DNA of 64,000 bases from a virus. Shown one piece after another: positions 5,079 to 36,120 of the stretch. A program made the translations under genes and the position numbers. Position 1 is the first letter of the stretch; every line of letters starts with the position of its first letter. The DNA lies in the IMG/VR virus record IMGVR_UViG_3300002052_000002, positions 1 through 64,000 of that record; one strand, written 5' to 3'. Below the pieces are notes generated by a model. The model was not told the DNA's origin, did no database searches, and saw nothing but the letters and a program-made list of their open reading frames with translations.

Positions 5079-6511
5079 TCATTTCCCTTTATTAATTTCA
5101 AATTCCTTTTTAATCTACTCCAAGTTTTATGATTTGTAAGCTCAGAAGAGATTTGTGTTCCTTCTTTCAAATTCTCCAATATATATTCGTCAATAGAATC
5201 CTTTAGTTGTAAGACATAATAGAAACAGGTTTGTTTTTGTCCTATTCTATGGATTCTATCCTGAGATTGGTTAAAAGCTGTTAGCCCCCAAGACATATTA
5301 TAGTATATAATATAACTAGCTGCGGTTAGAGTCAGCCCAAATCCCCCAGTAGTAGGACTGGCTATCATTATTCTAATTTCTTGGTCTTCCATAAACTTAT
5401 CTACAATTCTTTCCCTATCTTTTGGTGACATTGCTCCAGCTAATATTACATAGTTTTGTCCAACGGAAGATAACATATCAGCTATTAGCTCTGTTTCTTT
5501 TACCCACCACCTATAAATAATTATCTTTTCTCGCAATGGTATCTCGAAGATAAGGTCTCGTAATAATAGAAGTTTTGGGTTAGGATGGAATAAAACAGGG
5601 TCTTTATCCGTATAGAGGAATCCGCCAGCTATCTGACTTAGCTTCATTAATTGGGTGAGGATATTATCAACTCTAACATTCCCTTCGTCAAATTCCATTT
5701 TATGTACCAAGCCATCAGCTATCGGTCTATACAGCTCTACTTGGTCTTTACTTAAATAAGAAATCCTTTTATTCCAAACCTTTTCTGGTAGGTCAAGACA
5801 CTCTTCTTTACGCACACGGACTGCATTTATAAACATTCGCTCTTGGAATTCCTTTTCTATTTCTGGTTTTATTGCCCATTTTGGAAACTTCCATCCTATA
5901 TTCTTAAAATAAATATTCCTTGCTCTGTAAATATTTTCTCCAAAAGTTTCCCCCCTATCAATAATTCTGTATATAGTCAATAACTTAGTAAGGTCACGGT
6001 CTGATGGAGTTCCAGATAAGCCAATAACATAACCAGCTCTGTCACAAAGAATCTGTAAAGCTTTTGTTCGTAAAGTTGTCATATTTTGAGCGAAGGTTAC
6101 TTCATCCAAAATAATCATTCCGAATTTATGTTGTATAACTTTATCAAGTAATACCCCTAGAGTAGAATCTCTTCTGCCTGGAAGGGAGTCATAACTAATT
6201 ATAAATATTGAAGAATTGCTTCCAAGAAGTTTTATCTTTCTCTCTAAGCTGCCAACCAGCTTAGTATAATTGAAATAAGTATGCTCTTCTATTTGGTCTG
6301 CCCACGATTCTACTACTGATAGTGGACAAACAATCAATAGACTTTTAACTAGTCCTTGTCTATATAACATAGCAAATTTAGCCAAAGCTATCAAAGATTT
6401 ACCAGTCCCACAATCGCTCCAATCAGCACTTCTTGTTTTAGTTAAATGGAATTGCAGATTGTTAACTTGATGTTGAAATAAATCTTTCTTTAGTATCGGT
6501 ATCTTTTTCAT
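5075..6511 (-). CDS. SNF2-family helicase/ATPase
   Basis: Motif I DCGTGKS, Ia LIVCPLSV, II ILDE, III LSGTP, V GFGLTLTAA, VI QSQDRIHRIGQ. Confidence 0.95.
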   Translation of the reverse strand: MKKIPILKKDLFQHQVNNLQFHLTKTRSADWSDCGTGKSLIALAKFAMLYRQGLVKSLLIVCPLSVVESWADQIEEHTYFNYTKLVGSLERKIKLLGSNSSIFIISYDSLPGRRDSTLGVLLDKVIQHKFGMIILDEVTFAQNMTTLRTKALQILCDRAGYVIGLSGTPSDRDLTKLLTIYRIIDRGETFGENIYRARNIYFKNIGWKFPKWAIKPEIEKEFQERMFINAVRVRKEECLDLPEKVWNKRISYLSKDQVELYRPIADGLVHKMEFDEGNVRVDNILTQLMKLSQIAGGFLYTDKDPVLFHPNPKLLLLRDLIFEIPLREKIIIYRWWVKETELIADMLSSVGQNYVILAGAMSPKDRERIVDKFMEDQEIRIMIASPTTGGFGLTLTAASYIIYYNMSWGLTAFNQSQDRIHRIGQKQTCFYYVLQLKDSIDEYILENLKEGTQISSELTNHKTWSRLKRNLKLIKGNE

Positions 6512-8973: not shown

Positions 8974-8974
8974 T

Positions 8975-10654
8975 TTAAATTCCCTCCGTTTCTTGGATTG
9001 ATGCTTGTAAAATCCAACCTATCCTTCTATATAGTCTTTCATTCTTTTTAGCCCCCTGTGCCCAGATAGTAGGGAATAGAATAACCACATCTGGATATGG
9101 AGCTTGCCCACGCCGTTGTGTTAAATATTGGTAATCTTGAGAATACTTCAATAAATCATCCACTGTCTTATAATTTAGATGCTCGATATAATGTAGCCTT
9201 GCCACTCTATCTAATTGTTCAATTGCTTTCCTTGAGATTCCGAAGCTGACCAGAGAGTTACCACTATACTCTATCTGGACAGATATATTGTGTCTCAATC
9301 TGCAAGGAACAGGAGTGAAATATTTCTTTATATCGGCATTCCTAGAGATAATAGTAATAGAAGAGCGTCGCTTCTTCGCTATTCTCCAGTTTGGAGCGAT
9401 ATCGACTCCTTCCAATTTAACCTTACCTTTGTTCGTTACAAACATTTCGATGAACATATCTATATCTTTTTTGTAGGCATAATATAATGGGAGGGATTTT
9501 AATGTATGAATCGTCTCTCCATCTTTATATGCCCCATCGTATACCGCTTTAGTCAAAGCATATGTAGTCACAATGATACATTGGCACATATCTTCAGATA
9601 CTATATAAGAAGGTAATTGTCTCCATTCCCATCCACCGTGTGGCTTGTTCGGTCTAAACGCATCACGGCCACCTTCTCGTATAATGTCTGTAAGGTCATT
9701 TCTGATTCCAGTTTGATGTTTAAGTACATATATGCCAATATGCTTGTGTAATAGATGTGGTAATTCTTTAGGATACGATTTCTCACTGAAATGGATATGC
9801 CCGCCAGTATTTACTTTAGTTCCACCACCAGCAAAGATGAGAGATTCAGGTGGAATCGATTCTGAATTGAGAAGTTTCCTCATTACCCTTTTGATATTTC
9901 TCATCAAGTGATAAGGACTTCTGCCAGGGTCTGGACGTATCTCTCCAGTTTCTAGATGACCATCAGTTCCAATCTCTTTACCACCATGGAAAAATACATT
10001 AGCTCCAATGAGCCGTCCTCTCTTATCTATTATCTCAAATTCTGGGTCAGCCCCAACGAGTAAAGATTTGGAGAATATCCTACCAGAAGTTCGTACTTCG
10101 TGGATTTTAGTAAGAATATCTTTCATAAGTGGCACAAACTTTTGGGCAAGATGGGTAATGTCTGAAAGCCATAATAGATTAACTTTCAGGTTATAAAATC
10201 CCATCTCACTTCGGTCAGCATCATTTATAAAAGTGATATCCTTCTGAATATTTCCAGGCAGTTCTATATATTCTTTCTGGTAGCGATGAGATAATGGAAT
10301 GGTAACAGTGATTGGTACGAATCTTGGAGTCTTTATGCGAAGATGGGCAAGGATTTCACTTCTATTATATTCCCTTGTAGTTGCAGTTCCTTCATCATAT
10401 TCGCAGTAGATATAGATTGTGTTTGGTTGTAAGATACCGTAGCCTTGTGTTCCATCTGGATGTGGGTCATCCAGTCTTCTCATATGGTCGACACTATATT
10501 CTTTCATATCTCTACTAAGTACCATAACACCATTATGAGATACAATAGTTTTTAGTTCGCACCGTCTGATTAGAGGAGCCAATTCTTCTACAGCATCCTT
10601 TGTACAACCTTCATGCTCCATCAAGATTTCAATAGGATACTTAGCTCCTGTCAT
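8975..10654 (-). CDS. phiEco32-like COOH-NH2 ligase with extra N- and C-terminal domains
   Basis: VGADPEFEI, IGTDG...GEIRP.P, GGHIHF, HGGWEWRQLPS. Confidence 0.88.
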   Translation of the reverse strand: MTGAKYPIEILMEHEGCTKDAVEELAPLIRRCELKTIVSHNGVMVLSRDMKEYSVDHMRRLDDPHPDGTQGYGILQPNTIYIYCEYDEGTATTREYNRSEILAHLRIKTPRFVPITVTIPLSHRYQKEYIELPGNIQKDITFINDADRSEMGFYNLKVNLLWLSDITHLAQKFVPLMKDILTKIHEVRTSGRIFSKSLLVGADPEFEIIDKRGRLIGANVFFHGGKEIGTDGHLETGEIRPDPGRSPYHLMRNIKRVMRKLLNSESIPPESLIFAGGGTKVNTGGHIHFSEKSYPKELPHLLHKHIGIYVLKHQTGIRNDLTDIIREGGRDAFRPNKPHGGWEWRQLPSYIVSEDMCQCIIVTTYALTKAVYDGAYKDGETIHTLKSLPLYYAYKKDIDMFIEMFVTNKGKVKLEGVDIAPNWRIAKKRRSSITIISRNADIKKYFTPVPCRLRHNISVQIEYSGNSLVSFGISRKAIEQLDRVARLHYIEHLNYKTVDDLLKYSQDYQYLTQRRGQAPYPDVVILFPTIWAQGAKKNERLYRRIGWILQASIQETEGI

Positions 10655-12072
10655 TCTAACACCTCCTTTGCTTTAGATTTATAACCACCATTTCTTGTCA
10701 CCCCGATTATTCATTGTTCGACTGAAAGCAGTTGAAATTGCCTCAGAGACTCGCTCATCGACATAGTTTTCGATTTGCTGAATCATAGGAAATACTTCCG
10801 CATCAACAGCATCCTGACTCCATCTGGCAATCTCATCATCAGATTTTCCGCGAGTCACGCTCTCTACTATCTCTCTGGCAATTTCTTCCAGCCGTCGTTC
10901 AGATAACATCTTCTAGCCTCCTTTCTTTATTTAGCTGTTCGTTGTACAAAAAGGACATCAACCATGATAGTGCATCCCTCCAATGCTGCATCTGTCACTG
11001 TCATATCAGTATCTTTCGATTTCCTAACATATTTGCCAACTGTGTTCATAGTCTCATCCGATAAGGACGCAACAAGAAGGCATTGGTCATTCCCAATTTT
11101 GCAAGGAATTAGGTCTTTCTTACCAAATCCTATTAGTTTCCGCATCCACTCAAAAGTTTCTAAATCTGTTTTCTTAAATGCAATGATTTTGACCATTTTA
11201 CCTCCTAACACTTTCTTGAGTTTTGGCTTCTTATGCTTTCTGCCCATACTCCCATCTCTCCTTTTAGGGATTATTAGACTGACAATAGAATAGAATAGTA
11301 ATCCTACCAAGAATAAAACTATTAGAACCATAACTCCACAGAAGTTTTTAACTCTATCAATCATACTTCTCCTTGCCACAGATAGTACATCTCCATTTGA
11401 GTGGCATACCTTTCGCAGTTTTCATCTGATTGCAGAGTCGATACCCCTTTCCGTATTTCTTATCCTGATAGTCATCGTTACAATCACATTTCCTCAACGC
11501 TGTCATAGCCATATCTCGCTCCCTTAAATAACGTATAGAAATTGGCTATAATTGTAGACTGTTGGGCATTGTTCCACTTTATATTTAAATATACGTCCAC
11601 GCCACCATTTTCTATATTTGTTCCAGCTCCCTGCTACGTCCTCAGCATGTCCATATGAAGTATAAATTACCTTTGGACGACCATAAAGTGTAACCATCCA
11701 TAGTGTAGTTGGGTATATCCGCCGTATATCTTTTGCAGCGTAATCTACTATTGGAACTAGCGTCATATCAAAGCCCAATAATGTAGTCTTTATGGTTCCT
11801 TTATGTTCTACGACTTTCATATCATCCCCACAATTGTTCATAAAGATAGGCAATATATCTGGTTCCTTGATGGAAGTTGTGGCAAGCAGTGGGATAAAGA
11901 CGAGTACCTTCACATTTCGTGTCATTTAATTCTTGTGCTAGCTTCTCCAACTCATTAGGATTATTAGTTAAATCCTCCCTAATCCACCAGATTCTGTAGC
12001 CTTTTATTGAATTATCTCGATTCTTTTTGAATGTTTGCTGAGTAAGATATTTTGGCAGATGGTTTAGAATTT

Positions 12073-12606
12073 TCACTTAATCTCCTTCATCCATACATCA
12101 GTGCCTCGATTTGTAAGCCAAACTTTGCGCCATCTAGTTCTTTTCATAGATTTCGCAGCAACAAGATTATCAGCTTGTACACGAGCTACCATTATATCTA
12201 TCCCATGAGTTTTTGCAATCTCCTCTTTCATAGCATGGAGAACATAAGAATAACCTTTATCACGATATTTCTCCTCAATGCGCATCCCAGAAGAATATAT
12301 GATAAAATTATCTCCACTTATTTCTCCAGCAAGAGTAAGACAGAAACTCCCAAAATAATCACTGAATTTTGCATTGGGAGTTCTAGTATAGATATTCACA
12401 GTTACTCTTTCTCCCCCATCATTTCCTGAATTGAACCAAAGTCTCAAAGAAGCTCCAGATGGTAATAGAACTTTCCAATTATCGAAGACTTTTTCTATGG
12501 ATTCTCTATGGAAAAGTTCTCTTTCCCAAGCATTCTTTTCAACCTTGAGTTTCTTTTCATGCTTAGATACTGTCACAAACATACTATCATTTTGTAATAC
12601 CTTCAT
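12073..12606 (-). CDS. GNAT acetyltransferase (MKVL N-terminus)
   Basis: 'IEEKYRDKGYS' acetyl-CoA motif A and 'DNLVAAK...W' motif B. Confidence 0.75.
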   Translation of the reverse strand: MKVLQNDSMFVTVSKHEKKLKVEKNAWERELFHRESIEKVFDNWKVLLPSGASLRLWFNSGNDGGERVTVNIYTRTPNAKFSDYFGSFCLTLAGEISGDNFIIYSSGMRIEEKYRDKGYSYVLHAMKEEIAKTHGIDIMVARVQADNLVAAKSMKRTRWRKVWLTNRGTDVWMKEIK

Positions 12607-13397
12607 TCTTCTCTCCTTTCTAAGAAATTGTGTATGGCGTTAACGAATCGGCGAGCATTTATATCGCCAAATTCTGGTCGGCTATTAACCTCAAGAACAT
12701 ATAAGTTTCTTCCCTGCATAATAATATCTACCGCACCAAAATCATATTCTAATGCTCTCAACGCTGCCTCTCCTATATTTTTGACGTTTCGACGCAGACC
12801 TCTTTCTTCTCCAACTCCGCCCCATCTTGCTCCTCTATGTTCATTCCATCTGAAGTCCCCATTGGCAGGGGCAAACTTTTCCATAAAGAAAGCCATTATG
12901 CGATGAACCATCATCGCTCTGAACTCTCTATCCTTCTCTATATATTCCTGATATAATTGGTCCCGTTTGAAGCCAGGTCTATTAGTCAATCTCATGCCAG
13001 TTCCCATCTGTCCTACATCTGGTTTAACTACCAAGCGTGGATTACCTGCTCTCTCCCACTGTGCTCTAGTATTATAGACAGTTGGGACAGCAACTCCAGC
13101 ATTTGTAAATAAACGATTCTGCTCTACTTTTCCAATCACTAATCGTGGATTGAGAATTCTCACTCCATTTGGATAGTGTCCTTGGAACCTGCCATGATTA
13201 GCTCCCCATCTTACGATAGTATCACCACGACCAGCTCTTCCATTATAATGTCGCCATCCTCCAATATCAGCAATCCTTCTCCAAGTAGTTAAATGTGCGT
13301 CTGCATCGATGTAAATCATTAGCGTCGTCTCCTTTCTTTGAATAAGAAGAATTCTAATTCTGATTCGGAAATGCACCATATAGAACCATCTTCGCAC
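12603..13397 (-). CDS. ATP-grasp peptide ligase (RimK-like); likely start 13319
   Basis: VVKPD.G..GTGM, YQEYI..DREFR, DFGAVDII, YVLEVNSRP. Confidence 0.92.
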   Translation of the reverse strand: MRRWFYMVHFRIRIRILLIQRKETTLMIYIDADAHLTTWRRIADIGGWRHYNGRAGRGDTIVRWGANHGRFQGHYPNGVRILNPRLVIGKVEQNRLFTNAGVAVPTVYNTRAQWERAGNPRLVVKPDVGQMGTGMRLTNRPGFKRDQLYQEYIEKDREFRAMMVHRIMAFFMEKFAPANGDFRWNEHRGARWGGVGEERGLRRNVKNIGEAALRALEYDFGAVDIIMQGRNLYVLEVNSRPEFGDINARRFVNAIHNFLERREE

Positions 13398-13618
13398 TCT
13401 ACTTCCATAAAATCTGTTGTGCAGTCTTCACATAAATCAGGTTCTATTAATCTATCATTGTGGTCGGAATAACTATCCTTTGCACATTTCCTATATCCTA
13501 CTATTTTACGCCAATAAGGTTCTTCTTCGTCCTCCGTATCTTCTACATATGCAAGATATGAACCTATTGGTGCTAATTCCTCAACTGTCTTGTGATTTTT
13601 CTGCTTCAATATTTTCAT
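13319..13618 (-). CDS. Hypothetical Cys-rich protein, probable start at internal MKILKQK
   Basis: ATG at 13618 preceded by GAGG; the ORF track begins 24 nt earlier. Confidence 0.65.
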   Translation of the reverse strand: MKILKQKNHKTVEELAPIGSYLAYVEDTEDEEEPYWRKIVGYRKCAKDSYSDHNDRLIEPDLCEDCTTDFMEVECEDGSIWCISESELEFFLFKERRRR

Positions 13619-13815
13619 CGGCTGATTCCTCAAATTCAGCATCTATTACGTTGGCATCTCTGCCAGGTAATAGTGCTCTACCTCCCTTCATTAGGTACGT
13701 AGTGTCAGAAGTTAGACTTACTTTCTCTACATCACAACCAAGCTCTGCAGCGACGTCTTTCACTTGGTCTAGGATGTATTCGAGGTAGTCCATATCATCA
13801 TCGTGAATTTGAATG

Positions 13816-14259
13816 TCAAGTTCTATCTTCGCCTTCATCTTCCTCCCCTATTTGATAGTAATATTCTTCGTCCTCTTCATCCTCAAGCTTATCGCCTCTG
13901 AGAATTCTTTCTATTATATCTAGTGGGATTCCCCTCTCTTTTAAATCCTCTATATAGACTTCATATGGGTCTGTTATAATCATCAACTCAAAGTTTGGGG
14001 AACTATTTCCACATTCTCTGCATTCATATCTATCTATTTCAATTTGTTGATGCTCCTCATCTAAATTTTCTTCAGCTCTTCCAAACTCATCAACAAGTGA
14101 TATTCCCCTAACAGTTGATGTCCACATGGCGACTATGTTCTCTGGAGCTCTACAGGCAACACACCAATACCTACCTCCACCGCCTACACTACTCAGCCAC
14201 TCATCATACGTGGGGATATTTATTTCTTTCTTCTCTGGTTTGTTTAGAATAATTTTCAT
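13816..14259 (-). CDS. Zn-ribbon protein (CxxC...CxxC), MKIIL N-terminus, acidic tail
   Basis: CVAC and CREC motifs. Confidence 0.7.
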   Translation of the reverse strand: MKIILNKPEKKEINIPTYDEWLSSVGGGGRYWCVACRAPENIVAMWTSTVRGISLVDEFGRAEENLDEEHQQIEIDRYECRECGNSSPNFELMIITDPYEVYIEDLKERGIPLDIIERILRGDKLEDEEDEEYYYQIGEEDEGEDRT

Positions 14260-15309
14260 AACCCATACCTCTCAATCTCTTCTATATCTGTCAATAGCAT
14301 CCTTTCTCTTGGAAAATGCTTCTTGACGATTCTACACATATTATATGTGTAATCGCAGGAAGCATCCGCCCTAAACATCTCTATGAATTTATAATTTTGC
14401 CCCCTGAAATCTAAACTAAGTTCTCGAACTTCTAAATCATCTGGTCTTTCTGAGGCGATGACGATTCCTTTTTCAGTTGCTGGATGTTTAAACACCCAAA
14501 AGTATGACATTATTTTCTCCCTATTTTCATTCTGCGAAGGATTTCTTCTTTGATTCTCTCCCTCTCTTCTCCCCACTTCACATTATCACCTTTACGGTAA
14601 TTTCGCTCTTGCAACTTGGTAGCTAATAAGAGAGACCGTAACAATGCCTCATCATCAAATTCTCCATAGTTATAGCTGACCATTCTGCACCTCCTTTGTT
14701 GCTACATCTGTGGCCTCTACTTTATAGATTGTGTGGATATGTTTAGTTTTCAGGAAGAACTCAATTGATAAACCAATAAAATCCACAGCATTATCTGATG
14801 CTTCCCTAATTATACCTCTATCTACCCCTGTCCAATACTTATCAGAATGGTTTCGAAGCCAGAAGTATTTCATTATAACCCCCTAACACATACTGGAAAT
14901 CCTTTAGATTCCTGTGGTTCCTTTGGCATATCTGAATCTTCCTCTAATGTTTCTCTATGGGAAGCTAATGCAAGTCTCATACCTATTCTATCTTTGTTGA
15001 AATACTTGCATCGTTTCCACCAGTCTTCCCCCCGCTTTTTCGTTGGGAAAGTTTCAATCCAGATGACCTCTCCGTCTTCTTTCCTAAAGACAAACATAAG
15101 CCACCAATGGAATTCCAGCATTTTTCTACCACATTGATCTTGATTTATCATTTCCTTTATCCTCCTCTTCTGGAGTAAAAAGGAGTTTGAAGAATACTTT
15201 CTTACAATCTGGACATTCCATCCTATCGAAAGTAGAATGTATTTTAATCGTAGCCACTCTTACCAATTCGACATGCTTTTTACAGCGAGGACAGAAATGT
15301 ACTATCTTG

Positions 15310-15600
15310 TCACTTTCCATTCTTCACTCGGTCTCCTCTATACCATACATTTTCTTTTCTAGCTGGAGTCTGTACAAACATCTGCACATCGTCTCCATCT
15401 AGTCTGCCAATAACTACAGGGATGAACAACGCAGTGTATTCCCACGCACAGAGAGGCTCGAATTCTTTCTCAGGAATCTCATAGACTTCTCCATGTATTC
15501 CTTTGAATTCTGCTGCCTGTATAAATTTCCCACCCATCTGTTTCATCTTCCACTCGTTCTCAGCACCCCTTATAAGAGTGCCCCATACGAATAATTTCAT
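15310..15600 (-). CDS. Gamma-glutamylcyclotransferase (AIG2-like)
   Basis: LFVWGTL.RG..N and IHGEVYEI motifs; next to amidoligase. Confidence 0.85.
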   Translation of the reverse strand: MKLFVWGTLIRGAENEWKMKQMGGKFIQAAEFKGIHGEVYEIPEKEFEPLCAWEYTALFIPVVIGRLDGDDVQMFVQTPARKENVWYRGDRVKNGK

Positions 15601-15601
15601 T

Positions 15602-16873
15602 TTATTCCTCCTCTAATTTCTTTTCTGGCGACCATCTGTAGACACAGCCATTCTTATTATCAGAATGAGTATGCCACGACCCATCCAAATACCAATTCTT
15701 ATGAATGGCATTGATATCAAAGAAGTTGTCAACTCCTGAATAAATCATATCTAATAAAGCCTTATGGGTATTCTCGTGGTAGTTTGAGTATCTCCGTTTG
15801 ATAAGTCCTGCAAAGACTGCTTCATTAGATTTTATGACCTTCTTCGCTTTTGGGATATCATAATTATTTATGATTCCTACAATCACATCTTCTTTGACAG
15901 GAAGAATCAATTTGAATATCGGATAATTTAGCCCAAGAAATATAGCTGCTCTCGTCATATCATAAGAGAAATGATATACAACAGGAGAAACTAGGACTGC
16001 AGAACTTGGAGTCCTATATTCAATTCCATGGGATGGGAAACGATATTCCCCCGCTCTTCCATAGTACATCCGTCTTAATGGGCTTTCAACTTTTTGAAAC
16101 ATTGAGACAGACATGATTCCAAAAATGGCATCTGCTGCCTTAATCATATTTATTTTTTCTTCTTCCTTCCTTCCACTTAAGCCAAAATGGAAATGACAGC
16201 CAGCGAATCTAATTGGAAGAGCCGCAGGGTCTTGGACTTGGATGGATGGCGTGTTATAAACATTTTTACTAGGGGCACACCCTAGTTCAATATGCTCTGG
16301 TTTAGCGTCCGCCATTACCTCTGTTGGGATATCCATCACACTTTTGTATGTGAACTGACATTTTCTGTCGAAGGCTCTAGCAGCTTTCCATAATTTGACG
16401 AGTTGATAGTGTGTAGCATCTGTGAAGTATGCTAAACATCCACCATGAGGAACAGTAAATTCCGCCTGGAATCCATCCCAAAATACTCCTTCCCCACTTT
16501 GTTTCGCTGCCTTTTTGTTAGGCAAGAATTTGAAGGCTGGAATTACGATGCCATCTTTGTCCACTACGAATATCTCTGGGTCACCTCCGACGGTGCATCC
16601 TGATACTTGAGCGTAGTGCAATAGCTTTGCCCTACTCTCTGCAGTCATCCCCTTTAAGTCGGCTGTTCCCGCTATAGTACAACGTTCACTCTCTTCCGTC
16701 CTGATGTAGGAACTGTTGCCATTATCGATGTCGATGAGTCTTCCAGATACTATCTTACTTGGTCTGTCATGATACATATCTGTGAAGACGCCGATGGTGC
16801 CCTGGTATTTGATTATCTTACCAGCGCATTCTATCAATAATGGGGGCATCTTCGACCGCCGTTTAAGAATCAT
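15602..16873 (-). CDS. Second phiEco32-like COOH-NH2 ligase (type 2)
   Basis: VGGDPEIFV, DGFQAEF, LGC.PS.NVY, RFAGCHFHFG, RRMYYGRAGEYR...HGIEYRTPS. Confidence 0.92.
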   Translation of the reverse strand: MILKRRSKMPPLLIECAGKIIKYQGTIGVFTDMYHDRPSKIVSGRLIDIDNGNSSYIRTEESERCTIAGTADLKGMTAESRAKLLHYAQVSGCTVGGDPEIFVVDKDGIVIPAFKFLPNKKAAKQSGEGVFWDGFQAEFTVPHGGCLAYFTDATHYQLVKLWKAARAFDRKCQFTYKSVMDIPTEVMADAKPEHIELGCAPSKNVYNTPSIQVQDPAALPIRFAGCHFHFGLSGRKEEEKINMIKAADAIFGIMSVSMFQKVESPLRRMYYGRAGEYRFPSHGIEYRTPSSAVLVSPVVYHFSYDMTRAAIFLGLNYPIFKLILPVKEDVIVGIINNYDIPKAKKVIKSNEAVFAGLIKRRYSNYHENTHKALLDMIYSGVDNFFDINAIHKNWYLDGSWHTHSDNKNGCVYRWSPEKKLEEE

Positions 16874-19060: not shown

Positions 19061-19081
19061 ATAACGCCTCCCTATAAAATC

Positions 19082-19119
19082 AGATTGGCTTTTCAAGGGT
19101 TAGTTGCTGAAACCAATCT
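19082..19119 (-). ncRNA. CAGCAA hairpin element 1 (in RNA ligase leader)
   Basis: AGATTGG-TTTCAGCAA-CTAACCCTTGAAAAG-CCAATCT. Confidence 0.8.
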
Positions 19120-19435
19120 TCGAAGATTTGCAGGATAGATAGGATTCCTCATCCTGCGAGTTATTTATAAATACCTATTGGGCCAAAATACACTATCAGT
19201 CGAAACATCTCCCGAAGAACCACAAATATCTCGATAATAGAATTCCGTATGACAGTGTACACAAATTCCTTCAGATTTGAGAATTTTGCAGATGGCTTGA
19301 GCTGCCTTTTTACTTAATCCGTTTAACCGTGTATCACCTGTTATGATATAATGTTTTTTCCTCCACAAAAGTTTCTCTCTACTATTAATTTCGTATCTCA
19401 TAAGACCTCCTTTAGTCATCCCCTCTAAACTATTC

Positions 19436-19489
19436 AGGCTGGAGGTTTTCAGATTAAATGTCTGAGCCTTTGGTTGCTGAAACCAGCCT
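19436..19489 (-). ncRNA. CAGCAA hairpin element 2 with tRNA-Lys-like anticodon arm
   Basis: AGGCTGG-TTTCAGCAA-CCAAAGGC-TCAGA-CATTTAA-TCTGA-AAACCT-CCAGCCT. Confidence 0.8.
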
Positions 19490-19934
19490 TCAACACTTAT
19501 ATTATCTTTACCTGATTAAGTTCGATGAAAAACTTCTCTCCGCAACCTGCACACTGTAGATAGACAGGATTATTTCTGTCGTCTCTTATTCTGAAGAATG
19601 CGTAGCCACAACTACATACCCACGTTCTTGGTTCTACTACTACAGGAGACCAGTGGGCTTCTCGTTTTAGTGTTGGTTTTGTGGCATGGGAACCAATCCA
19701 AAATTTTATACTCATCTCTTTCCCCCTCTCTTACTTAACTTCATTGGGTTGATTTTCTTTTTACTTGTTGGGTCAATTACTACAGGTAGTATGTGAGTTC
19801 TACTTGCACATCCGCCCAGCTTTGTCCATAATTTAGTAGGCTCTACGTGCCTATCACAAATCTGCCCCCATTTGATATGGTCACATCCTTCATCTTGTTG
19901 GCACTTCTGATGGAGCTCTAAGTTACTGAATTGA

Positions 19935-21142: not shown

Positions 21143-21200
21143 AGATTGACTAGTGGGTTCGACCCCACCATTTATCCAAGTGTTGTGCGGAAGTCAATCT
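21143..21200 (-). ncRNA. Divergent hairpin element 3 (CCGCAC variant)
   Basis: 9-bp stem AGATTGACT/AGTCAATCT with TCCGCAC at the motif position and an internal hairpin. Confidence 0.6.
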
Positions 21201-22962
21201 TCTGGGGGGCTTAACTTATTTCTCTGCAGCGAAAAGCTTTTCCCGTATTAAGAAATAGAGATTATATCTTCGTCGTCGTCGCCTAATGGGAATTTCTCAT
21301 TGCAACCCACACACTCTGCATACCAGCGTAAGTCACAATCCCCACCATCCTCTTTATATATTTCGAAACTACTAGTACCACAAGAGCAAGTGAATATGGA
21401 TATTTTTCTATTTGTGACTTGTTTCCATTTTCCGTTCTTCTTTCTCCCCATCGTCCTCTCCTTTCAAAATGCCTCCTTTATGCTGTGGTAATCCACCATA
21501 TATCGTTGCGTAATACTATAGACCAATCCTGCCTAACAAAAAGATAAGAATCCCAATCGAGTATCATCCAATTGAAATGTCCGTTTCTCATTCCTTTACC
21601 ATCTTCCTTGTTTTCTGCTCTAGGACTTTAGACATATTCTCAATGGATTGTAACACGTTCTCGCCAGTATTCTTAATGGTCTTATCCGTGGTTACTATAT
21701 CCACGCCATACTTCACCGCTGCCATTTTGAGCATACTATCCGTACTTGGCATGGCTACAGATAATAGCAGAGCTATTATAAGAGCAGGAACGAAACGCCG
21801 CAGATATGCTTTAACCATTGGTGCCTGTTTCTCCGCCACCTTGTTGTGGCTTAAATGTTCACTATTAGCATCAACTATATTAACTATTTTCCATATGATG
21901 CCAATAACAACACCTATACTACATACCACTGTAGTTGCGATGAATAGCCCTTGAATAGCTGTTAGTTTGAACAATAAATATACTTGCCACCATTCCATTT
22001 TACTTCCTCCTCTCGAATATTAAAAATGCCTCACTCTCCATTCTCATCCACCATCAGTGTGAAAGGAGTCTATCTTATAACAGATTGTACATTCATAAAT
22101 AGAATCAGCCATAGTTCCACCTATACAGGTATATCTATGTCTCCTCCCTGTTATAATATAACATATCACCTTTCGCCGAATCCATTCAAAGAGTGGAATC
22201 CTCCTCATTGTGATTCTTTCTTCATCATATTCACCTTTTGCTTTTGCAGGCCTTTCACTCTTAGCATATAATTCTAGAAGGTACGGATTATTTGTTATCA
22301 TTTTACTCACCCCCTTACTCATTCCTATTAACAACGATGTTTAAACGAAAGAACATATACTCGATGCTTAATTCTATAACCCAATGACTCATGCCAAAAT
22401 TAAAACCAAACCACACCTCATCTGGGTCGTAGAATAAACTCCATTGCCCCCAACTTGTTCCTTTACCCCACGCTTTCACAATCTTTTCTCCTTCTTAATG
22501 GTTTCATCCACAATTTGGAAGTGAGTATCAGATACAAAGAAACTTACAAGGTGCCCAGTTCTTCTTTCTAACCATCTTGCAAATTCTCGTGGAGTGATAT
22601 CAATTAGCGGATTGCCTTCTTTATCCACGATTTGAAACCAAGTGCCTTCGCCTGCTATTTTAACTGTCCTTAGTTCTCCGTACATGGCTTTCCTTCCTCC
22701 CAATTTATGAATCGTGGGTCTATGTTATGCACACCCCCGTCGAATTCTGTTGCTGTTGCCTTCATCTTTGGACACTTCCTGCATTTCCATAGCTCATATA
22801 TTATAGGAACTCTTCGCACAGTGCTTGAGAATATCAACTGGATTGTGCCGTGCCCTTTCTTCTCTACGACTTTCTCCCACTCATGAAACAGATGCATTGC
22901 ATTCCCCTTTCTTTAAATCTCTCTTACTTTTTCACCCCCTTTCCTTTTTGACCTGAATATGC

Positions 22963-23111
22963 AGATTGGCTTTTTTCAGGGTTCTATTGCTGAAACCAAT
23001 CTTTGAAGATTCACAGGATAGCTTTTTTCATAGTTTGGTTGCTGAAACTATCCTTCTAAACTATTCAGAGTGGTATTTGTCCGTGCAAGGATTTATTGCT
23101 GTAACCACTCT
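22963..23111 (-). ncRNA. Tandem array of three CAGCAA hairpins (22963-23002, 23015-23054, 23067-23111)
   Basis: Stems AGATTGG/CCAATCT, AGGATAG/CTATCCT, AGAGTGGT/ACCACTCT, each followed by T(T/A)CAGCAA; 12-nt linkers. Confidence 0.85.
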
Positions 23112-25271
23112 TCAAAGTTTTATAAGTTTTTATCTGGCGGTCCAATATCTACTTCTACATACCTCTTGTCATCACCATCATAAATAGAAAGTAATACCAT
23201 ATCACATCCATCAAAAGAAGTATGGAAGCGGACTATCTTGTCCTGGTTAAACTGGCTGAGCCATTCGATAACTGTTTTTACCGTTGAGCCCTGCTCTTTC
23301 AATAGCTTATGAGTTACCCTCTTCATTTTTCCCCACCAATTTCGTATACGAGCCACCAGTTTCTAAATCTGGGTGACGAGAATTTAGAAGGGATCGCTAA
23401 TTTCCTGTACGGTGAGAAGATTCATTTTTTTATTTTAAGATCCCGGATTTGACGTTTAAGTTCATCATTTTCTAAAATAAGAAGATTCATTTCATCTGTT
23501 TGCCCCACTAAGTGTTTTCGTTTGTGAGCGAAACACAATCCTTGCCCCCTAGGTGCGATTTGCGGTCTAGGATATTCAATTTTCCAGTTACATTCTTCAT
23601 CTCCAAATTCTTTACATATTCTTGCACCGATTCCCCATAAACTTTTTTTAATATTTTTATTGTTGCAATATGCATCATCATCATTAAAAATACAGTTTAT
23701 TTTTTTATTCATTTAACTTCTCCTTTCTATCTCGTATTCTCTTTGAAATTCCGCTTAAATCCTTTTAATAATCCAACTATCATCTACTCAACATTTATCT
23801 ATATATGTTCTCGTCAGAAACACAACCCCCTTGTCCTTTCTAACTCCTTCCCCATCCTTGGCATATTCCCGTCAGTGGTCTTTCACCGGTGTTCTGGTTA
23901 CTGCGGGACCGCTATGCGATCACTCGTATACGAGTAGCTGTATCCAGTCTTAATCTCTAACCCAAGACGGTTAAGTAATAATGAAAGAATGGAGGAGACA
24001 GACCATTTTGGTGCTCCATATATAGTATGTGGTGGACTATCTCTGAATCTGCCGTCATAGATATTGGCATCTAATGTTAACTGGTCTACCCTACTCTGCA
24101 GGAATTTTACTTCTCTTTCTAATGCTTCAATTCTTTTCTTCTTTGATGGCATAGTTATCCCTCATATCTGTGACCTACGAATGGACGCACTCTTCGGAGC
24201 TTTTTATCTAGTGCTTCCAAAGCCCTCTTAGCTGCGATATTCCAGCCACAGTCCTCATTGTTCTTATCGATGAATGACTTTTTCGTGACACCTTCACCGA
24301 TGATTTGTCTTCCTGTTTTAGGAAGAGTCAGAGTAGCAACTACTACAGTGAAAGCTACACCCTGAAATCCTACCTCTGTATCAACGCTTTCAAGATTATT
24401 TGAAACTTGTAGTAGAGTCCGAAACTCCTTCGCTAACTCTAATGCTGTCTTCTTTCTATACTGTGTCATCCTTTTCACCTCCTTTTATATCTACACTCTC
24501 CTTTTTCCCATTGCTTATACGGACCTTTGTATAGCCCCCTTCATTTGACTTTCAAACCAGCAAGTCTCTTTCGACATCTGCAAAGTTCTAAAATTGCAGA
24601 AAATAATTCATCAGCTTCACCATAGGTTAATACTATATCCCAATGAAAATAACCTTCGTTTCTTTCCATACCTCTCTTCAATGTCTTTTTCAATTCGCTT
24701 AATCGTTTATAGCTCACACAAATTGGCATATTCTCCTCCCTTGGATTTACCCCGTCTCTCATTACACTCGTTACAAGTGCAATTATCACTATATCTATGG
24801 ATGTATTTCATTCTTTCTTCTCTTCTTTCCCATCCTCTTTCGAGTTAACTGTCTCGATACAATACATAACTTGGTTTGCCATGACCAAGACTTTATAGCG
24901 ATTTCTCGCTGCTTCTAAGCTTGGTGCCCTTACTCGTACCTTAGTTGTTATTTTGTACTCAGGCATTCTCTTACCTCCTTTATACTGAATCGACATAGAC
25001 TTTCTTAACTTCGTATATCCCCGTCCTGTTATTCCATTGGATTATGAAATCTATGCAAGCTCTTTGGGTGACTGTAGCCACTCCAGAAGAGGAGAGTCCG
25101 ATATGTGCTTCTAATTTTTGCAACATCTCCCTGACCTCTGTCACTCTCTCTTTATTGAAGAACATCATTGTATATTCTTCACCGTTGGGTGCTGGGAATG
25201 TAATCTTTGGCGTTGGTGTCCATATATCCGCCAATGCTATGTTGTTTTCTTGTGCTTTCTTTGTGTGCATC

Positions 25272-26747
25272 TTATCCCTTTGTCCTCCTTTTCCTTGGAA
25301 TCTTAATCTTATATTTCTCAAGCGTCCTTAACATAACACCTTTAGGAGTCAAGTCTTCCGCACCAAAGATGGCTTTCAATATAGCTGGACTAAAGCCAGA
25401 TACTAATGCCACATTCTTATGTTTCGTAGTCGTTGGTTGTCCCGCATAACCAGTCGTATTCCAATAGACAACTTGAGGAATATCATATCCAGCCTCAAGC
25501 CATTCATCCAATACATTCTCAACCTCTGCTTTCTTACCTGTTGTTCCTTGATGGAACTGCATATCAGAAACGATAAGAAGCATATTAGGCATGCCCTCTT
25601 TCGATACGTTGAAGAACTTCGCTGCTTTTAATAATGTTCTTAATGCTTTAGCTATCTGCGTAGAGCCAACCGCACCATCAAAGATGGTATGACTCTTCAC
25701 CGCTTGAGAGAACTTCATACCATTCCAATCCTTAAGTTTGCCCTCAGAGCAGAAAGCTAGGAACTTCTTATAGAATGGATTGTCCTTGGGAATCTTAGCG
25801 GAGCAGTATAATGCCATCCCTTGGCTGATGTGAACAGCTTGCACAGAGCCACTTACTGCTGTGCTCATAGAACCAGAAGTATCACAGACTACAATAGGTC
25901 TTGCTCCTGTTTCCATGTAATTTGGTAGGGCATCAAACTGTGCATCGGCAATCTTGCTATCACCACTAAGTACAGTTCTTACACAGTCGTGTGGAAACAG
26001 CACATCACTATGGATAGTCGCTTTGCCCTTTTCCAAAGCTTCCTTATACGCTTCGAATCTCTCCGCATCATGCCTTCCAAATGCTTTGGTGTAGCGTGCC
26101 ATAGCCACTGAAGGAACATGCTCGTATGTAATTTTGTTCCATTGATTTGAACACATCTTATACTCAACGATGTGGTCTTTCCGAATCTCAGCGAGGATTT
26201 TCCTAAATGCCCTCTCATTTAACGAGCCTGCTCTTCGCAAAGGCTTATCGCTTCTGTCTGCCCACTTAGCAGCCAGCACATCCTTCTCACTCAAAGCGTG
26301 TGTCCATAGCTTTACAGCTATCTTCTCACACTCTGTGCCGAATAGAGTGCGAAGGTCATCCCACCTTCCAACCAATGGAATCCAGCCAATATTGAGGTCA
26401 ATCCATCTTGGGTCTTCCTTAGCCAACCATCCAAGACAGGCTCTGAATCCACTTCTATTCCCTGCTCCACCACGACAATCTCTCAGCCATAATAGAAGCT
26501 TAAAAGATACTGTTGGGTCAACTATCCAGGTCTTTTGGAACAGAGATAAAGCGGAATCTTCGCTGCCGTAGAAGGTTCCCTTCTTAATAAATAGAGAACC
26601 AGCCTTACTAAAGAATTCCACAGCATGGTCTAGAGAATGCTCATACTGTTTCGCTCCTTCATGTGTCTTATCAGGAGTCTTTGGAATCCTATAGTCTTCC
26701 CCTTCCATCTCTTCATCTTCAAATTCGTCTTCGTAATCGTCCCACAT
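25272..26747 (-). CDS. DUF2828 family protein (Ro60/TROVE-like helical region plus vWA domain); start moved to ATG 26747
   Basis: LWLRDCRGGAG.R, GRWDDL, LAAKWA, I.Y.HVPSVAMARY.KAF, MIDAS VCDTSGSM, SDMQF, VVYWN, ALVSGFSP; AGGAGG RBS. Confidence 0.88.
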   Translation of the reverse strand: MWDDYEDEFEDEEMEGEDYRIPKTPDKTHEGAKQYEHSLDHAVEFFSKAGSLFIKKGTFYGSEDSALSLFQKTWIVDPTVSFKLLLWLRDCRGGAGNRSGFRACLGWLAKEDPRWIDLNIGWIPLVGRWDDLRTLFGTECEKIAVKLWTHALSEKDVLAAKWADRSDKPLRRAGSLNERAFRKILAEIRKDHIVEYKMCSNQWNKITYEHVPSVAMARYTKAFGRHDAERFEAYKEALEKGKATIHSDVLFPHDCVRTVLSGDSKIADAQFDALPNYMETGARPIVVCDTSGSMSTAVSGSVQAVHISQGMALYCSAKIPKDNPFYKKFLAFCSEGKLKDWNGMKFSQAVKSHTIFDGAVGSTQIAKALRTLLKAAKFFNVSKEGMPNMLLIVSDMQFHQGTTGKKAEVENVLDEWLEAGYDIPQVVYWNTTGYAGQPTTTKHKNVALVSGFSPAILKAIFGAEDLTPKGVMLRTLEKYKIKIPRKRRTKG

Positions 26748-26785
26748 AATTAATCCTCCTTCCTTTCGTAACTGTAATACTATAG

Positions 26786-27667
26786 TTACTCCTTCCTTAT
26801 ACACGCAGTCCCATTGAATTCTTCAGATGCTCTAAAATATCTACCAGTGAACTGGATAGTATCCACATGTGAGTATAATATACCAGACCACATTCCAAAT
26901 CGAGATTGATGCCAATTAATATGGAACAAGATTGTGTATTCTTCATCGCTTGGTAGATATCTTAAGTCCCAGTACCCTTGTAATGGTCTGAAATAGTTGT
27001 AAGTATCCCTTCTCGTCATCTCAAATTCAAGTATTTGATAGGGCAGAAGGCACTCCTCACACTCCACAATCATCTGCCCAGTAGCATTCTTATCTTCATC
27101 TAATTTTCCATATAGGGTGTAGAAGACATCACAAGGTGCTACTTGTGGAGCTCTCCAATCTCCTTGAGGAAGCCATCTTATGTGTGGACTTGAGGTATGC
27201 CATGATGGGTCGCCAGTATGATATAGGAAATGTCTATTCAGTTCCCAAAAGAAAGCTGTACCTACAAACGCATCATTCCCTTGTCCTTCGTCATCCCCCA
27301 TATGTATCACGATAGTATTTGGTGCCCTGTAGTACCCATCTAGACAGCCATATGCAGTACGCATTTCTTTAGTGTCTAGCTGTTCCTTATCTACACACCG
27401 TTTATTCCAAGGGCGTATAACTACTCGTAGCTGTTGAGGATTTAGCGATGTTTCGAATAGCCCATTCATGATAGTAAACGCTTCATCTAACGCTTCCCAT
27501 TCTATTTCATTCCAATCCTCATAAAGCCAGTGCTCTTCGTACTGGTTGATGGCTCTATCTCTTGCTTTGATGAGTATCCCATTAGGCGTGGTAGTAGTCC
27601 ACGCATCAGAGATAGAACAAGTTGCCATTAACAATAACCACGCTAATATAACAATGAACTTCGTCAT
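26786..27667 (-). CDS. Secreted hypothetical protein
   Basis: Signal-peptide-like N-terminus. Confidence 0.6.
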   Translation of the reverse strand: MTKFIVILAWLLLMATCSISDAWTTTTPNGILIKARDRAINQYEEHWLYEDWNEIEWEALDEAFTIMNGLFETSLNPQQLRVVIRPWNKRCVDKEQLDTKEMRTAYGCLDGYYRAPNTIVIHMGDDEGQGNDAFVGTAFFWELNRHFLYHTGDPSWHTSSPHIRWLPQGDWRAPQVAPCDVFYTLYGKLDEDKNATGQMIVECEECLLPYQILEFEMTRRDTYNYFRPLQGYWDLRYLPSDEEYTILFHINWHQSRFGMWSGILYSHVDTIQFTGRYFRASEEFNGTACIRKE

Positions 27668-32513: not shown

Positions 32514-33530
32514 CTGATGTTATTCCTTTTTAGTTTCTCTTCGGCATTGGAACAACTACTATATTGAAGCACTCAGTTTCATGTTATCGTGTTGAACTGA
32601 GTGGGTAAACCATCACTCTCTATTGACTTAGAAGCTTCCGCTTCTCTCTCTGCATTTTAGTTGACGGCTTTCCACTTTAGTCCGCCTGATTACCAGATTA
32701 GGATGAACGCTTGTATTAACTCCCATATCATCCTTACTTGGAGCATATAATCTATGTAGGCTTTTATTCCTTGCCATAGATAGCAGGTAATATTTCAGCT
32801 CTCCTTGGTTTATCTCCGAACGTAACCAACTTGGTTACTTGACTGTTTCCCTCTCTCCGCTTACTCAAGTGTATAAGCAGAATTCACGGCTTATTTCTTG
32901 CCTTAATCTGTAGCTTAGATAGGCAAGCTACTTTAGGCAATAACACCGTGAGAGAGTAAACCCAAGAGCTTTCTCCGTTACCACGGCTTCGGTATACCCC
33001 GCAGGATAACCAGCGTTTTTGTTGACGGGGAACTCGCATCCATAAGGCGTTGCCTTTATCCGCTGTTACAAGCTGGCATCACCAGTCCATCTGTGCAACT
33101 GGCTTGCTACTTGTTAAGAATCGCTATGTTACAGTAAGGTATCCGCTTAGGGTATATATCCGACCACCTTTCGTATGGCTCCACCCATCATCTTCTAACC
33201 CTCACATAGCTAATAGTTGTCACCAAGCTAATGAAACTTGATGGAAAGTTTAAAGGAGTTTAACCATTTTTCGTTGACTATCGCATCCCTTGTGTGAGAT
33301 ACCAGTTAAGGGATGTCCAAGTTATCCACTCCTCAAGGCAGGCATATAATATTTGAGTCCTCTAAGGTTCGCATTTATCCGAAAGTTAATTGGCATTATG
33401 ACGAATAAATCATTTGAACCGCTCTACCCTTATATGCCACATATATTCAGGCACTTTCAAGCCTTGGCTATATGCAAGCCATATATGATGTTATCTCTAT
33501 GCTTATATTAGCCATAGAGAATTGCATCCA
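32514..33530 (-). ncRNA. Candidate large structured non-coding RNA (~0.9-1 kb)
   Basis: No minus-strand ORF of 60 aa or more; more than 10 nested helices; G-U pairs and GNRA loops favour the minus strand; 5' boundary uncertain. Confidence 0.7.
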
Positions 33531-34326
33531 TACCATAGAATAGAGTAGGTCAGTCTATAAATTGTTTCATATCACCAGCTTTGCGAAGAATAATAGTGGG
33601 AATAAACTTCTTCTTAGCTATTCCCCTTGCATTCTTATTGAATATCTTAATCTTCGCTCTGCCCTTTACCATCAAAGCACCCTCATTACATTTGCCATAC
33701 CGAACTCTATGGCGTATAATATCCCAGTTGGTATGACCCTTAAGGTGTCGCTTTATATGTCCGTAAGCGTGGCGTCTATGATAGCATTTAATTCCTATCA
33801 TCTTTAAGCTCCACAAAGAGCAGAGTCTTAAGCATCTCCATCACTTCCCAATATGCGGAAGCCTTACCCTCAAAGTAAGCCTTAAGTTGCTTACTATTTC
33901 TCTTCTCTTCTGCTTCTTCCACAATGGTCTGTGCTGTATGATGCTTAGACGCTAAACTCTCCAGTATTCTTTCGATAGCCTTTCTCATATGCCACGCTCC
34001 TTTCTGCTACCAATATTCCTGCGTTTTATTTCAGCAGGATAATAGCACTTAAAGTCCTGCGTGGCATTAGGCTTCTTATGGAGCAGATTCATTTTGAGCC
34101 TGTCGCCGCAGGATTGACAGCATTTAGTCGGATGTAAGTCCGTGTTTTTATAAGGCTTCTTCATCGACTTTCCCCTTTCTATCTCCTTTAATCGTTCCAT
34201 ACACTATTAAGTATGCTAATACACACAAGCAAGGAAACCACAAAGGAGATGTGAAGAATAGAATTGTCAGCATAAATGCATATGCTTCCATATTATTCTC
34301 CTTCCCGACTAACCTACTCTATTCAA

Positions 34327-34338
34327 TTTTCAAAGAAC
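34327..34338 (-). promoter_or_regulatory. boxA-like antitermination element GTTCTTTGAAAA
   Basis: Resembles rrn boxA; related copies at 34717-34728 and 35129-35140. Confidence 0.55.
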
Positions 34339-34340
34339 GG

Positions 34341-34455
34341 GGACTCATCAGTGTAGCTATGAGCTACATATAGGGGAGCATCAGATTGATTTGGGTTTGC
34401 ATTCACGCAGTTTAGTTGCGGAAATCAACCTTCAACTGCTCCCTCTATTTCGTCC
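34341..34455 (-). ncRNA. Type II hammerhead ribozyme, predicted cleavage after AUA (between 34369 and 34368)
   Basis: GGAC-GAAA-[stem III TAGAGGGAGCA...TGCTCCCCTA]-TA-[stem I TGTAGCT-CAT-AGCTACA]-CTGATGA-GTCC; complete conserved core. Confidence 0.9.
34383..34431 (-). ncRNA. Hairpin element 7 (CCGCAA variant) nested in hammerhead stem III
   Basis: AGGTTGATT-TCCGCAA-...-AATCAATCT. Confidence 0.75.
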
Positions 34456-34463
34456 TTCTATGC

Positions 34464-34508
34464 AGGTTGGAATTGTCCGTATAAGGGTTTAATTGCTGTA
34501 TCCAACCT
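34464..34508 (-). ncRNA. CAGCAA hairpin element 8, immediately 5' of the hammerhead
   Basis: AGGTTGGA-TACAGCAA-TTAAACCCTTATACGGACAAT-TCCAACCT. Confidence 0.8.
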
Positions 34509-35164
34509 TCATATAGGATTAATCGCCGATAGACACCTTCAACTCCTCTTCTAGTAGCGGCTTCAATTCCGCCCTATCCTGTGCATTGAACCCCTTGATT
34601 TCACGAGCGAATTCGCCAACAGACTGGTTATGGAGTTTACCAAAGAATCGGCTACAAGCAGCAGCAAAACTAATCTTCTCTCCGTCTGCCATTCTTGTCA
34701 CCCCTTTCTTATTTGGATTTAAAAGAACAATATAGATAAGGGATAAGGGAAGGATAGAAGATGGGAAGTAATCAAGACCATTTAGTAGCGGTATCTAAAC
34801 GCCCTTAGAACCGCCCAGAGCTTTTTCAGTTCGAGCTTATTTAGCATGGCTACATCCCATGAGAAGTGAATAGGGTAGCCATTAAGGGTATACATCGAAT
34901 CGACAGGAACCAACTCTTCTATGACCTTTGGCATTGACTCTTTACCTTTCTTTTTTTGCCAATATATGTCATGAAGAATGGAAGATGTACATCGGTATCT
35001 ATTGACCAACTTCTCATCCAACTCAATCGGCATATTGTTGACAACGATTACCATAGCGTATTCCCCTTTCTGCAGTAAAGGGAACTGCGACTTCCCTTTC
35101 CTTCTTCCTTTCCCTTTCCCTTATTCTATTTTCAAAGAGCTGTAAAGTGGTGTCAAATAGGCAT

Positions 35165-35210
35165 AAAAAAAGCCCATATAGACGACCATTATAGTCAATC
35201 CATATGGGCT
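35165..35210 (-). terminator. Intrinsic terminator
   Basis: Minus strand AGCCCATATG...TATATGGGCT-TTTTTT. Confidence 0.75.
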
Positions 35211-35339
35211 TATATATGCTGTTATAAGCAGGAATCTGATTGACAGATTATATCGTTATATCGCTCGGCTTATAAGACGGTCTATATAGGCAACAAAAGG
35301 TCGCTTAGATGATGTAATCTACAAACAACTTGGTGCAGA

Positions 35340-35708
35340 TTACAAATCAAGCAATTCGGCCAGCAAGGTCATGTTCTTCTTCGTGGACTCCTTGACCTTA
35401 TGCTCAACGGTCTTGACGAAAGATAGGCTAAATCCGCCCTTCACAGGCTTGCCGTATATCTTTCCTTCCCGAATGAGTTTCTGGCTTTCATCGATAGGGT
35501 CATAACCCAGCTCTCGAAGAGTGTCATTTAGCGACTTCATCTTCTGGTCGCCAATGACTGGCTTGAAATAGACGGTATGGCAAGAATAGACGACTCTAGG
35601 CTTGCCATCATTCCCTAACTTAGGTGTGCCATCTTCGTTCTTTAGTGGCACTCCCCTTTCAGCGGCTTTGATATAAGCACTGATAACTGCTTCTGCAGTA
35701 GGCTTCAT
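35340..35708 (-). CDS. Hypothetical protein, first clear gene of the left arm
   Basis: ORF with AAGGAG RBS. Confidence 0.7.
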   Translation of the reverse strand: MKPTAEAVISAYIKAAERGVPLKNEDGTPKLGNDGKPRVVYSCHTVYFKPVIGDQKMKSLNDTLRELGYDPIDESQKLIREGKIYGKPVKGGFSLSFVKTVEHKVKESTKKNMTLLAELLDL

Positions 35709-36120
35709 AGTGTTCTCCTTTCCACTCCATCTGGAGTGCGATAATGAGGGTTTAGTAGCACATAGATAGCCTATACAGACCGCCTAACAAGCCGAACGAT
35801 ATGTAGTTTAGAAAGAGCGTCATCGTTGCATCCGTTTGCACCGATGATTCAGTCGGCCTAACCGACTTTCGACCCCAACTTAACACGATTTTGGTTATCC
35901 ACATCGGTCGGATGGGCAAAAACTCCAATGATTTTCGATACTTCCGAATCCAAATCCACAAATTTCGATATTTCAATCGGAGAAGTGCCACCTAACCAAG
36001 GTTGTGATGAACCACATACCCCCCCACCATGCCTAAACAATCCCTTACACCGACTCCGTTTCATATAAAAACCTCGATATATAACATAGAATGCTTATCT
36101 GGACTGGAAAACCCATAAAC

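Follow-up and report, generated by a model that had tools for sequence, protein, structure and literature searches.

A complete type II hammerhead lies on the minus strand (34341-34455, located by inspection of the sequence) in the spacer that separates two small genes of the early region in an uncultured ~113-kb phage, whose genome record is complete at 112.9 kb. Positions are those of the window, the whole 64,000-nt stretch of this genome that was analysed. The motif is canonical for a phage hammerhead, with a stem III that is unusual in being composite; it is missed by the Rfam models and stands on the sense strand of the flanking genes. We favour, with moderate confidence, the reading that it is a genuine type II hammerhead that splits the polycistronic RNA of a minus-strand early operon. 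Hairpins of a separate phage family lie inside its stem III and directly upstream, a combination that appears specific to this phage and two near-identical relatives.

Anatomy of the hammerhead

Along the minus strand, the spacer holds hairpin 1, CAUAGAAG, the hammerhead, a boxA-like GUUCUUUGAAA and the ribosome-binding site GGAAGGAG, in that order; CAUAGAAG is the eight bases that separate hairpin 1 (34464-34508) from the hammerhead. The individual elements are given in Table 1. The core reads C3 U4 G5 A6 N7 G8 A9 and G12 A13 A14, with A rather than G at H17, so that all eleven invariant core bases are correct, and the three stems abut the core without mispairs. All three pairs next to the core are standard: G10.1-C11.1 (G34344-C34452), U1.1-A2.1 (U34368-A34352) and A15.1-U16.1 (A34448-U34370). 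Stem III has 11 bp with A34444 bulged and encloses hairpin 2, the whole element spanning 79 nt (34370-34448), while stem II has 4 bp, a CCG bulge and then 4 more bp (UUCU/AGAA). The 5´ strand of stem II together with its extension (34334-34344) overlaps the boxA-like motif (34338-34328). Sequence, folding and a descriptor search thus bear out the complete type II core on the minus strand, with the anatomy and topology, that an earlier note on this DNA had described. The layout of the core also places the predicted cut where that note had put it, between 34369 and 34368. A second cut at an upstream CCUAUAU|G was considered and ruled out, as stem I there would have only 2 bp.

Table 1. Elements of the hammerhead spacer, its flanking genes and related hairpin loci (window positions unless a locus is named)
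Feature	Position	Strand	Details or basis
Upstream 60-aa ORF	34519-34701	minus	no family; just three near-identical homologues
227-nt spacer	stop codon of 60-aa ORF (34519-34701) to start codon of 47-aa ORF (34148-34291)	minus	
Hairpin 1 (upstream)	34461-34511	minus	R1 model, 37.4 bits, E 1.5e-9
Stem II extension, 3´ side AGAA	34459-34456	minus	paired in minimum-energy fold of 138-nt fragment
Stem II 3´ strand GGAC (11.4-11.1)	34455-34452	minus	sequence; paired in minimum-energy fold of 138-nt fragment
Core G12 A13 A14 A15.1 (GAAA)	34451-34448	minus	sequence, descriptor match
Stem III, AUAG(A)GGGAGCA with UGCUCCCCUAU	34448-34437 with 34380-34370	minus	sequence, fold
Hairpin 2 (inside stem III)	34380-34434	minus	R1 model, 28.2 bits, E 1.3e-6
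A17	34369	minus	sequence
Predicted cleavage site	3´ of A17 (34369), 5´ of U1.1 (34368)	minus	position relative to core, hammerhead chemistry
Stem I hairpin UGUAGCU-CAU-AGCUACA, 7 bp	34368-34352	minus	sequence, fold
Core C3-A9 CUGAUGA	34351-34345	minus	sequence, descriptor match
Stem II 5´ strand GUCC (10.1-10.4)	34344-34341	minus	sequence, fold
Stem II extension, 5´ side UUCU	34337-34334	minus	pairs with AGAA past CCG bulge
Downstream hydrophobic 47-aa ORF	34148-34291	minus	ribosome-binding site GGAAGGAG
Hairpin loci of relatives	L191:9580-9958, L192:9478-9982, L193:9571-9957, L216-L237		

A 138-nt fragment takes the hammerhead three-way junction as its minimum-energy fold, with z = -5.2 and no equally good fold among 200 shuffles. 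When the full 230-nt spacer was folded with the nearest-neighbour model, a fold without stem II was favoured by 2.4 kcal/mol and stem II made up about 1.7% of the ensemble, its competitor being an extended hairpin 1 stem (UCCUAUAU with AUAGAAGGA); the pair probabilities of stem I are 0.66-0.99. We also noted that CCUAUAUG occurs twice on the minus strand, at 34510-34517 (5´ of hairpin 1) and at 34367-34374 (the cut site), and that the purine-rich AUAGAAGG and AUAGAGGG can pair with either copy, giving alternative folds of the spacer.

The spacer carries two hairpins of a phage RNA family

The hairpins were scored with a covariance model, R1, whose seed consists of 31 hairpins of other phages only, these relatives having been reached through the DUF2828 protein. 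The family frame is an invariant A-AG ... CU-G, in which an A-AG-N5 stem leads into a loop that starts UUUCAGCAA and N5-CU-G closes the element. Five of the seven stem pairs covary, with double changes in the seed, although its rows were selected for pairing. R1 matches seven sites of the window, each of them on the minus strand. Two of these are the elements that the earlier note had seen inside stem III and directly upstream, so that both are recovered by a model built independently of them; judged by these scores, both local hairpins are true members of the family. Hairpin 1 has the stem AGGUUGG/CCAACCU and a loop that starts AUACAGCAA, and begins 8 nt past the stop codon of the 60-aa ORF. 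Hairpin 2, which is coaxial with stem III, has the stem AGGUUGA/UCAAUCU and a loop that starts UUUCCGCAA. Where stem III meets hairpin 2, the sequence GCA-GUU-GA ... GA-UGC has a k-turn-like pattern, with weak matches to C/D-box snoRNAs. As a trait of the hairpin family the k-turn was ruled out, since other members have neither an outer stem nor a second G.A pair.

In the relatives, one to four copies of the hairpin stand in tandem directly 5´ of DUF2828 genes at about 25 related phage loci, and at nine loci 1-4 nt separate the end of the last hairpin from a GGAG Shine-Dalgarno sequence. In the window, hairpins stand ahead of the ribosome-binding sites that serve the RNA ligase gene and small ORFs; copies were observed at 19079-19122, 19433-19492 and 22960-23114. 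The hairpins match no Rfam Y RNA model, and their placement looks like that of a shared translational operator or leader element more than that of a free Y-like RNA. No such hairpins are found at the DUF2828 locus of Vibrio phage KVP40, and a pattern scan of IMG/VR with the hairpin seed alone returned mostly chance single matches and about six real copies. Two family members have a variable loop that resembles a tRNA T arm, ACGGTTCGATCCCGT (L228:7802-7872) and GGGGTCGAACCC (window 21143-21200); the latter copy is too divergent to be found by R1 at E <= 1.

The association of ribozyme and hairpin is a single case

Hairpins are carried by three full-length relatives (96, 186 and 95 kb) and by most of 22 metagenome loci. 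At least 38 hairpins, most of them adjoining DUF2828 genes, were counted over about 25 related loci, with no credible hammerhead at any, and no ribozyme lies alongside the other five R1 hairpins of the window. Applied in all three hammerhead topologies to the three full relatives and the 22 metagenome loci, the descriptor gave only long-looped matches inside genes, and RF02276 found nothing in the three full relatives. The IMG/VR scan for the architecture GAAA, CAGCAA hairpin and CUGAUGAG yielded 68 stretches, all of them chance matches that do not fold as a hammerhead, and the scan for CUGAUGAG followed by the boxA-like TTCTTTGAAAA gave coding-sequence matches only. A blastn search of 33000-36000 against cultured phages gave no match, and relatives sought via the flanking 122-aa and 60-aa ORFs were spurious loci or none. 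With no homologous hammerhead in the IMG/VR pattern scans, the three full relatives or the 22 metagenome loci, the hammerhead has no covariation support.

Because the hairpins occur without a ribozyme both in the window and in the relatives, the association of the two is a single case. The link that the earlier note had drawn between the ribozyme and the hairpin family is therefore real in this genome, but it is neither conserved nor a system-level design. The hairpin-bearing relatives that have no hammerhead argue that the hairpin in stem III would be a passenger. Hairpin 2 is most likely a local copy of the leader element that landed in, or helped to build, a position where hammerheads tolerate an insert of any length, and is probably not a conserved functional partner of the hammerhead.

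A functional partnership of ribozyme and hairpin was nevertheless considered. A protein that binds the CAGCAA hairpins, with DUF2828 as the candidate, might change the folding by sitting on hairpin 2 or hairpin 1, which would make the ribozyme protein-responsive, or the cut might create the mature, cyclic-phosphate 3´ end of a two-hairpin RNA that is then carried by such a protein. The coaxial position of hairpin 2 on stem III is consistent with this, as are the clustering of the hairpins beside DUF2828 genes in relatives, the alternative pairings of CCUAUAUG with AUAGAAGG or AUAGAGGG and the competition between the extended hairpin 1 stem and stem II. Against it stand the hairpins without a ribozyme, at least 38 of them in about 25 related loci and five in the window, the status of DUF2828 as only a candidate binder, and a genome that encodes no end-healing enzyme and no RtcB; on balance we consider such cooperation unlikely. 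Given the fold without stem II, the repeated CCUAUAUG and the k-turn-like junction, a hairpin-binding protein could shift the folding of the spacer, although we would give this only a small chance. Little credence is due to a ribozyme that is gated by protein or coupled to an RNP, whether the binding of a Ro-like DUF2828 protein to both hairpins would switch the RNA between the stem II-less and the active fold or a two-hairpin RNA with a cyclic phosphate would enter a DUF2828/RNA-ligase pathway. The RNA ligase of the phage is of the PF09414 type, and neither RtcB nor an AAA_33-type kinase was found in the complete 112.9-kb genome, which extends to the whole genome the caution, expressed earlier for the window, that direct religation is not implied.

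Within this genome the motif is not a chance match, and it escapes the Rfam hammerhead models

A type II descriptor (CUGANGA, GAAA and UH, with minimum stems of 4, 3 and 4 bp), run on both strands of the whole 112.9-kb genome, matched this site only. In two sets of dinucleotide-preserving shuffles of the genome (300 and 1,996), the loose descriptor gave 0.05-0.06 matches per shuffled genome. Stems I/II/III of at least 7/4/4 bp were found in 3/1,996 shuffles, a count that takes no account of seven further stem III pairs, of the stem II extension or of the exact G10.1-C11.1 pair, nor of the motif being intergenic and on the sense strand. Within this genome the hammerhead motif is not a chance match.

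The earlier note had proposed a cmsearch with hammerhead models, and on this count the site failed, as no Rfam hammerhead model scores it even at E <= 10. The Rfam hammerhead models gave no match at the gathering score in the window, nor at E <= 10 in slices of 651 and 146 nt, and RF02276 (Hammerhead_II) had no match on the whole genome. No other ribozyme was found anywhere in the window by Rfam at the gathering score and E <= 10. In most, but not all, type II hammerheads a pseudoknot joins loop I to the nucleotides just 3´ of stem II (PMC3088659). Here, loop I (UCAUA) has no partner of at least 4 bp just after stem II, and its sole 4-bp matches, 21-27 nt away, draw on bases of stem I. A 5-bp pairing of UCAUA with UAUGA at 34513-34509 was tried as the pseudoknot and found unconvincing, since by our estimate chance alone would supply such a pairing in about half of cases. 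The silence of Rfam is plausibly due to the 79-nt stem III, in place of a short hairpin, together with the missing pseudoknot. The geometry, with a stem I of 6-7 bp and a small loop facing a 4-bp stem II and its 3-nt bulge, would be compatible with a loop-bulge contact.

These results bear on the reading that the motif is inactive or a chance look-alike, and that the real features are the two leader hairpins and the palindrome TGTAGCT-CAT-AGCTACA, which could be a protein-binding site or an RNase target. Such a reading would account for the missing Rfam match, conserved homologue and type II pseudoknot, and for the weakness of stem II in the ensemble. A few good chance matches are also expected over the many gigabases scanned, the extrapolated chance being about 5e-6 per 113 kb with the extra stem III pairs counted. 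It would, however, leave to coincidence eleven correct invariant core bases, a correct A15.1-U16.1, H17 and G10.1-C11.1, three stems that meet the core without mispairs, the right strand and intergenic position, and stems that were equalled in 3/1,996 shuffled genomes even with the extended stem III ignored. We therefore hold a look-alike to be distinctly unlikely.

Operon context

The hammerhead belongs to a run of small same-strand genes on the minus strand, which a strong terminator at 32514-32478 ends, and a sigma-70-like promoter lies at 35156-35128 on the minus strand (TTGACA, 17 nt, GAAAAT). The boxA-like motif GYTCTTTNAAA has three exact minus-strand copies in successive spacers (34328-34338, 34718-34728 and 35130-35140), and, with one mismatch allowed, is no more frequent in the window than expected by chance; as the copy at 35130 overlaps the sigma-70-like promoter, at least one copy may be promoter sequence and not boxA. 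That cleavage would mainly serve GUUCUUUGAAA, releasing the 3´ strand of stem II and leaving the motif single-stranded at the new 5´ end for antitermination or another factor, would fit its place directly 3´ of the ribozyme, its overlap with the stem II extension and its recurrence in successive spacers (34328, 34718 and 35130), but is very unlikely in view of this chance-level count, the copy that coincides with the promoter and the purely coding-sequence matches to CUGAUGAG followed by TTCTTTGAAAA in IMG/VR.

Several further features of the window were observed. A hairpin GCCCAUAUGG ... CUAUAUGGGC followed by a U run (35164-35207, minus strand) looks like an intrinsic terminator; within the early region, it sits immediately upstream of the promoter-like site. 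Between the small early genes and the terminator at 32514-32478, some 1 kb (32518-33530) holds no credible ORF and has no Rfam match at the gathering score. No tRNAs were found in the window. A peptide/amidoligase-type cluster on the minus strand (7282-16873) includes two phiEco32-like COOH-NH2 ligases (PF14395), a glutamine amidotransferase and a RimK-like ATP-grasp gene, and an SNF2-type helicase is encoded at 5075-6511.

A model for splitting of the early transcript

If, as we favour, the motif is a genuine hammerhead, stems III and I would fold first during synthesis of the polycistronic RNA, after which GUCC (34344-34341) would close stem II with GGAC (34455-34452) and the core would cut between A34369 and U34368. 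The upstream RNA would then carry the 90-aa and 60-aa genes and both hairpins and would end in a 2´,3´-cyclic phosphate one base past stem III. Provided that the ribozyme is active, self-cleavage would thus set the 3´ end of a two-hairpin RNA, as the earlier note had suggested. The downstream RNA would start with a 5´-OH at the foot of the stem I hairpin and would comprise the 47-, 71- and 66-aa genes, of which the 47-aa ORF has its start codon 77 nt after the predicted cut, and a roughly 1-kb non-coding stretch. Stem III would cap the upstream RNA at its 3´ end, and stem I the downstream RNA at its 5´ end. Since helices would cap both new ends, the two halves of the transcript could have different lifetimes; we infer cleavage, the end chemistry and this effect on RNA stability.

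Implications

Hammerheads between phage genes have been known since 2011 (PMC3088659), and the ribozyme alone adds little. What this site does illustrate is that a textbook core escapes curated covariance models when a long insert occupies one of its arms and the usual pseudoknot is absent, and Rfam-based counts of phage hammerheads are therefore underestimates. It is also a natural case of a ribozyme arm that is built from a separately conserved RNA module, probably a protein-bound one. The construct suits asking whether the DUF2828 protein binds the hairpins, and whether binding affects RNA processing. The neighbouring system of hairpins and DUF2828 is a more interesting object than the hammerhead itself.

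Comparison with known systems

A role in dividing long transcripts into shorter mRNAs has been proposed for type II hammerheads located between phage and prophage genes (Perreault et al. 2011, PMC3088659). The present motif shares with them (RF02276; PMC3088659) the canonical core, closed stems I and III and an open stem II, as well as the intergenic sense-strand position in a phage operon and the proposed cutting of long transcripts. It differs from them in being unscored by the Rfam model and in having no pseudoknot between loop I and the 3´ tail. In addition, its 79-nt stem III holds an independently conserved hairpin module, and its stem II resumes past a 3-nt bulge. Hammerheads with large peripheral insertions exist, in the form of discontinuous or expanded-stem hammerheads. 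Like these, the motif combines an intact catalytic core with extra structure on one arm, but unlike the inserts of expanded-stem hammerheads, its insert belongs to a distinct RNA family whose other copies precede DUF2828 and RNA ligase genes.

With Ro60/Y RNA and the phage ROT/TROVE proteins (PMC4201824; PMC7824862) the phage shares small structured RNAs beside the gene of such a protein, with an RNA ligase close by. The protein, of DUF2828 plus vWA type (25272-26804), is annotated as 'RNA-binding protein' in cultured phages, but has no sequence match to any solved Ro60 structure. The hairpins likewise differ from Rfam Y RNAs and often end, operator-like, 1-4 nt before a Shine-Dalgarno sequence. 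To our knowledge, no ribozyme is known in Ro/Y systems.

In the early mRNAs of T7-type phages, RNase III processing hairpins are cut between the cistrons of a polycistronic transcript, leaving a 3´ hairpin on the upstream product. The arrangement proposed here would be alike in function, in that an early transcript would be cut between cistrons and the upstream product would keep a 3´ hairpin. However, where T7 relies on a host enzyme and produces 3´-OH and 5´-phosphate ends, the phage RNA would cleave itself and carry 2´,3´-cyclic phosphate and 5´-OH ends.
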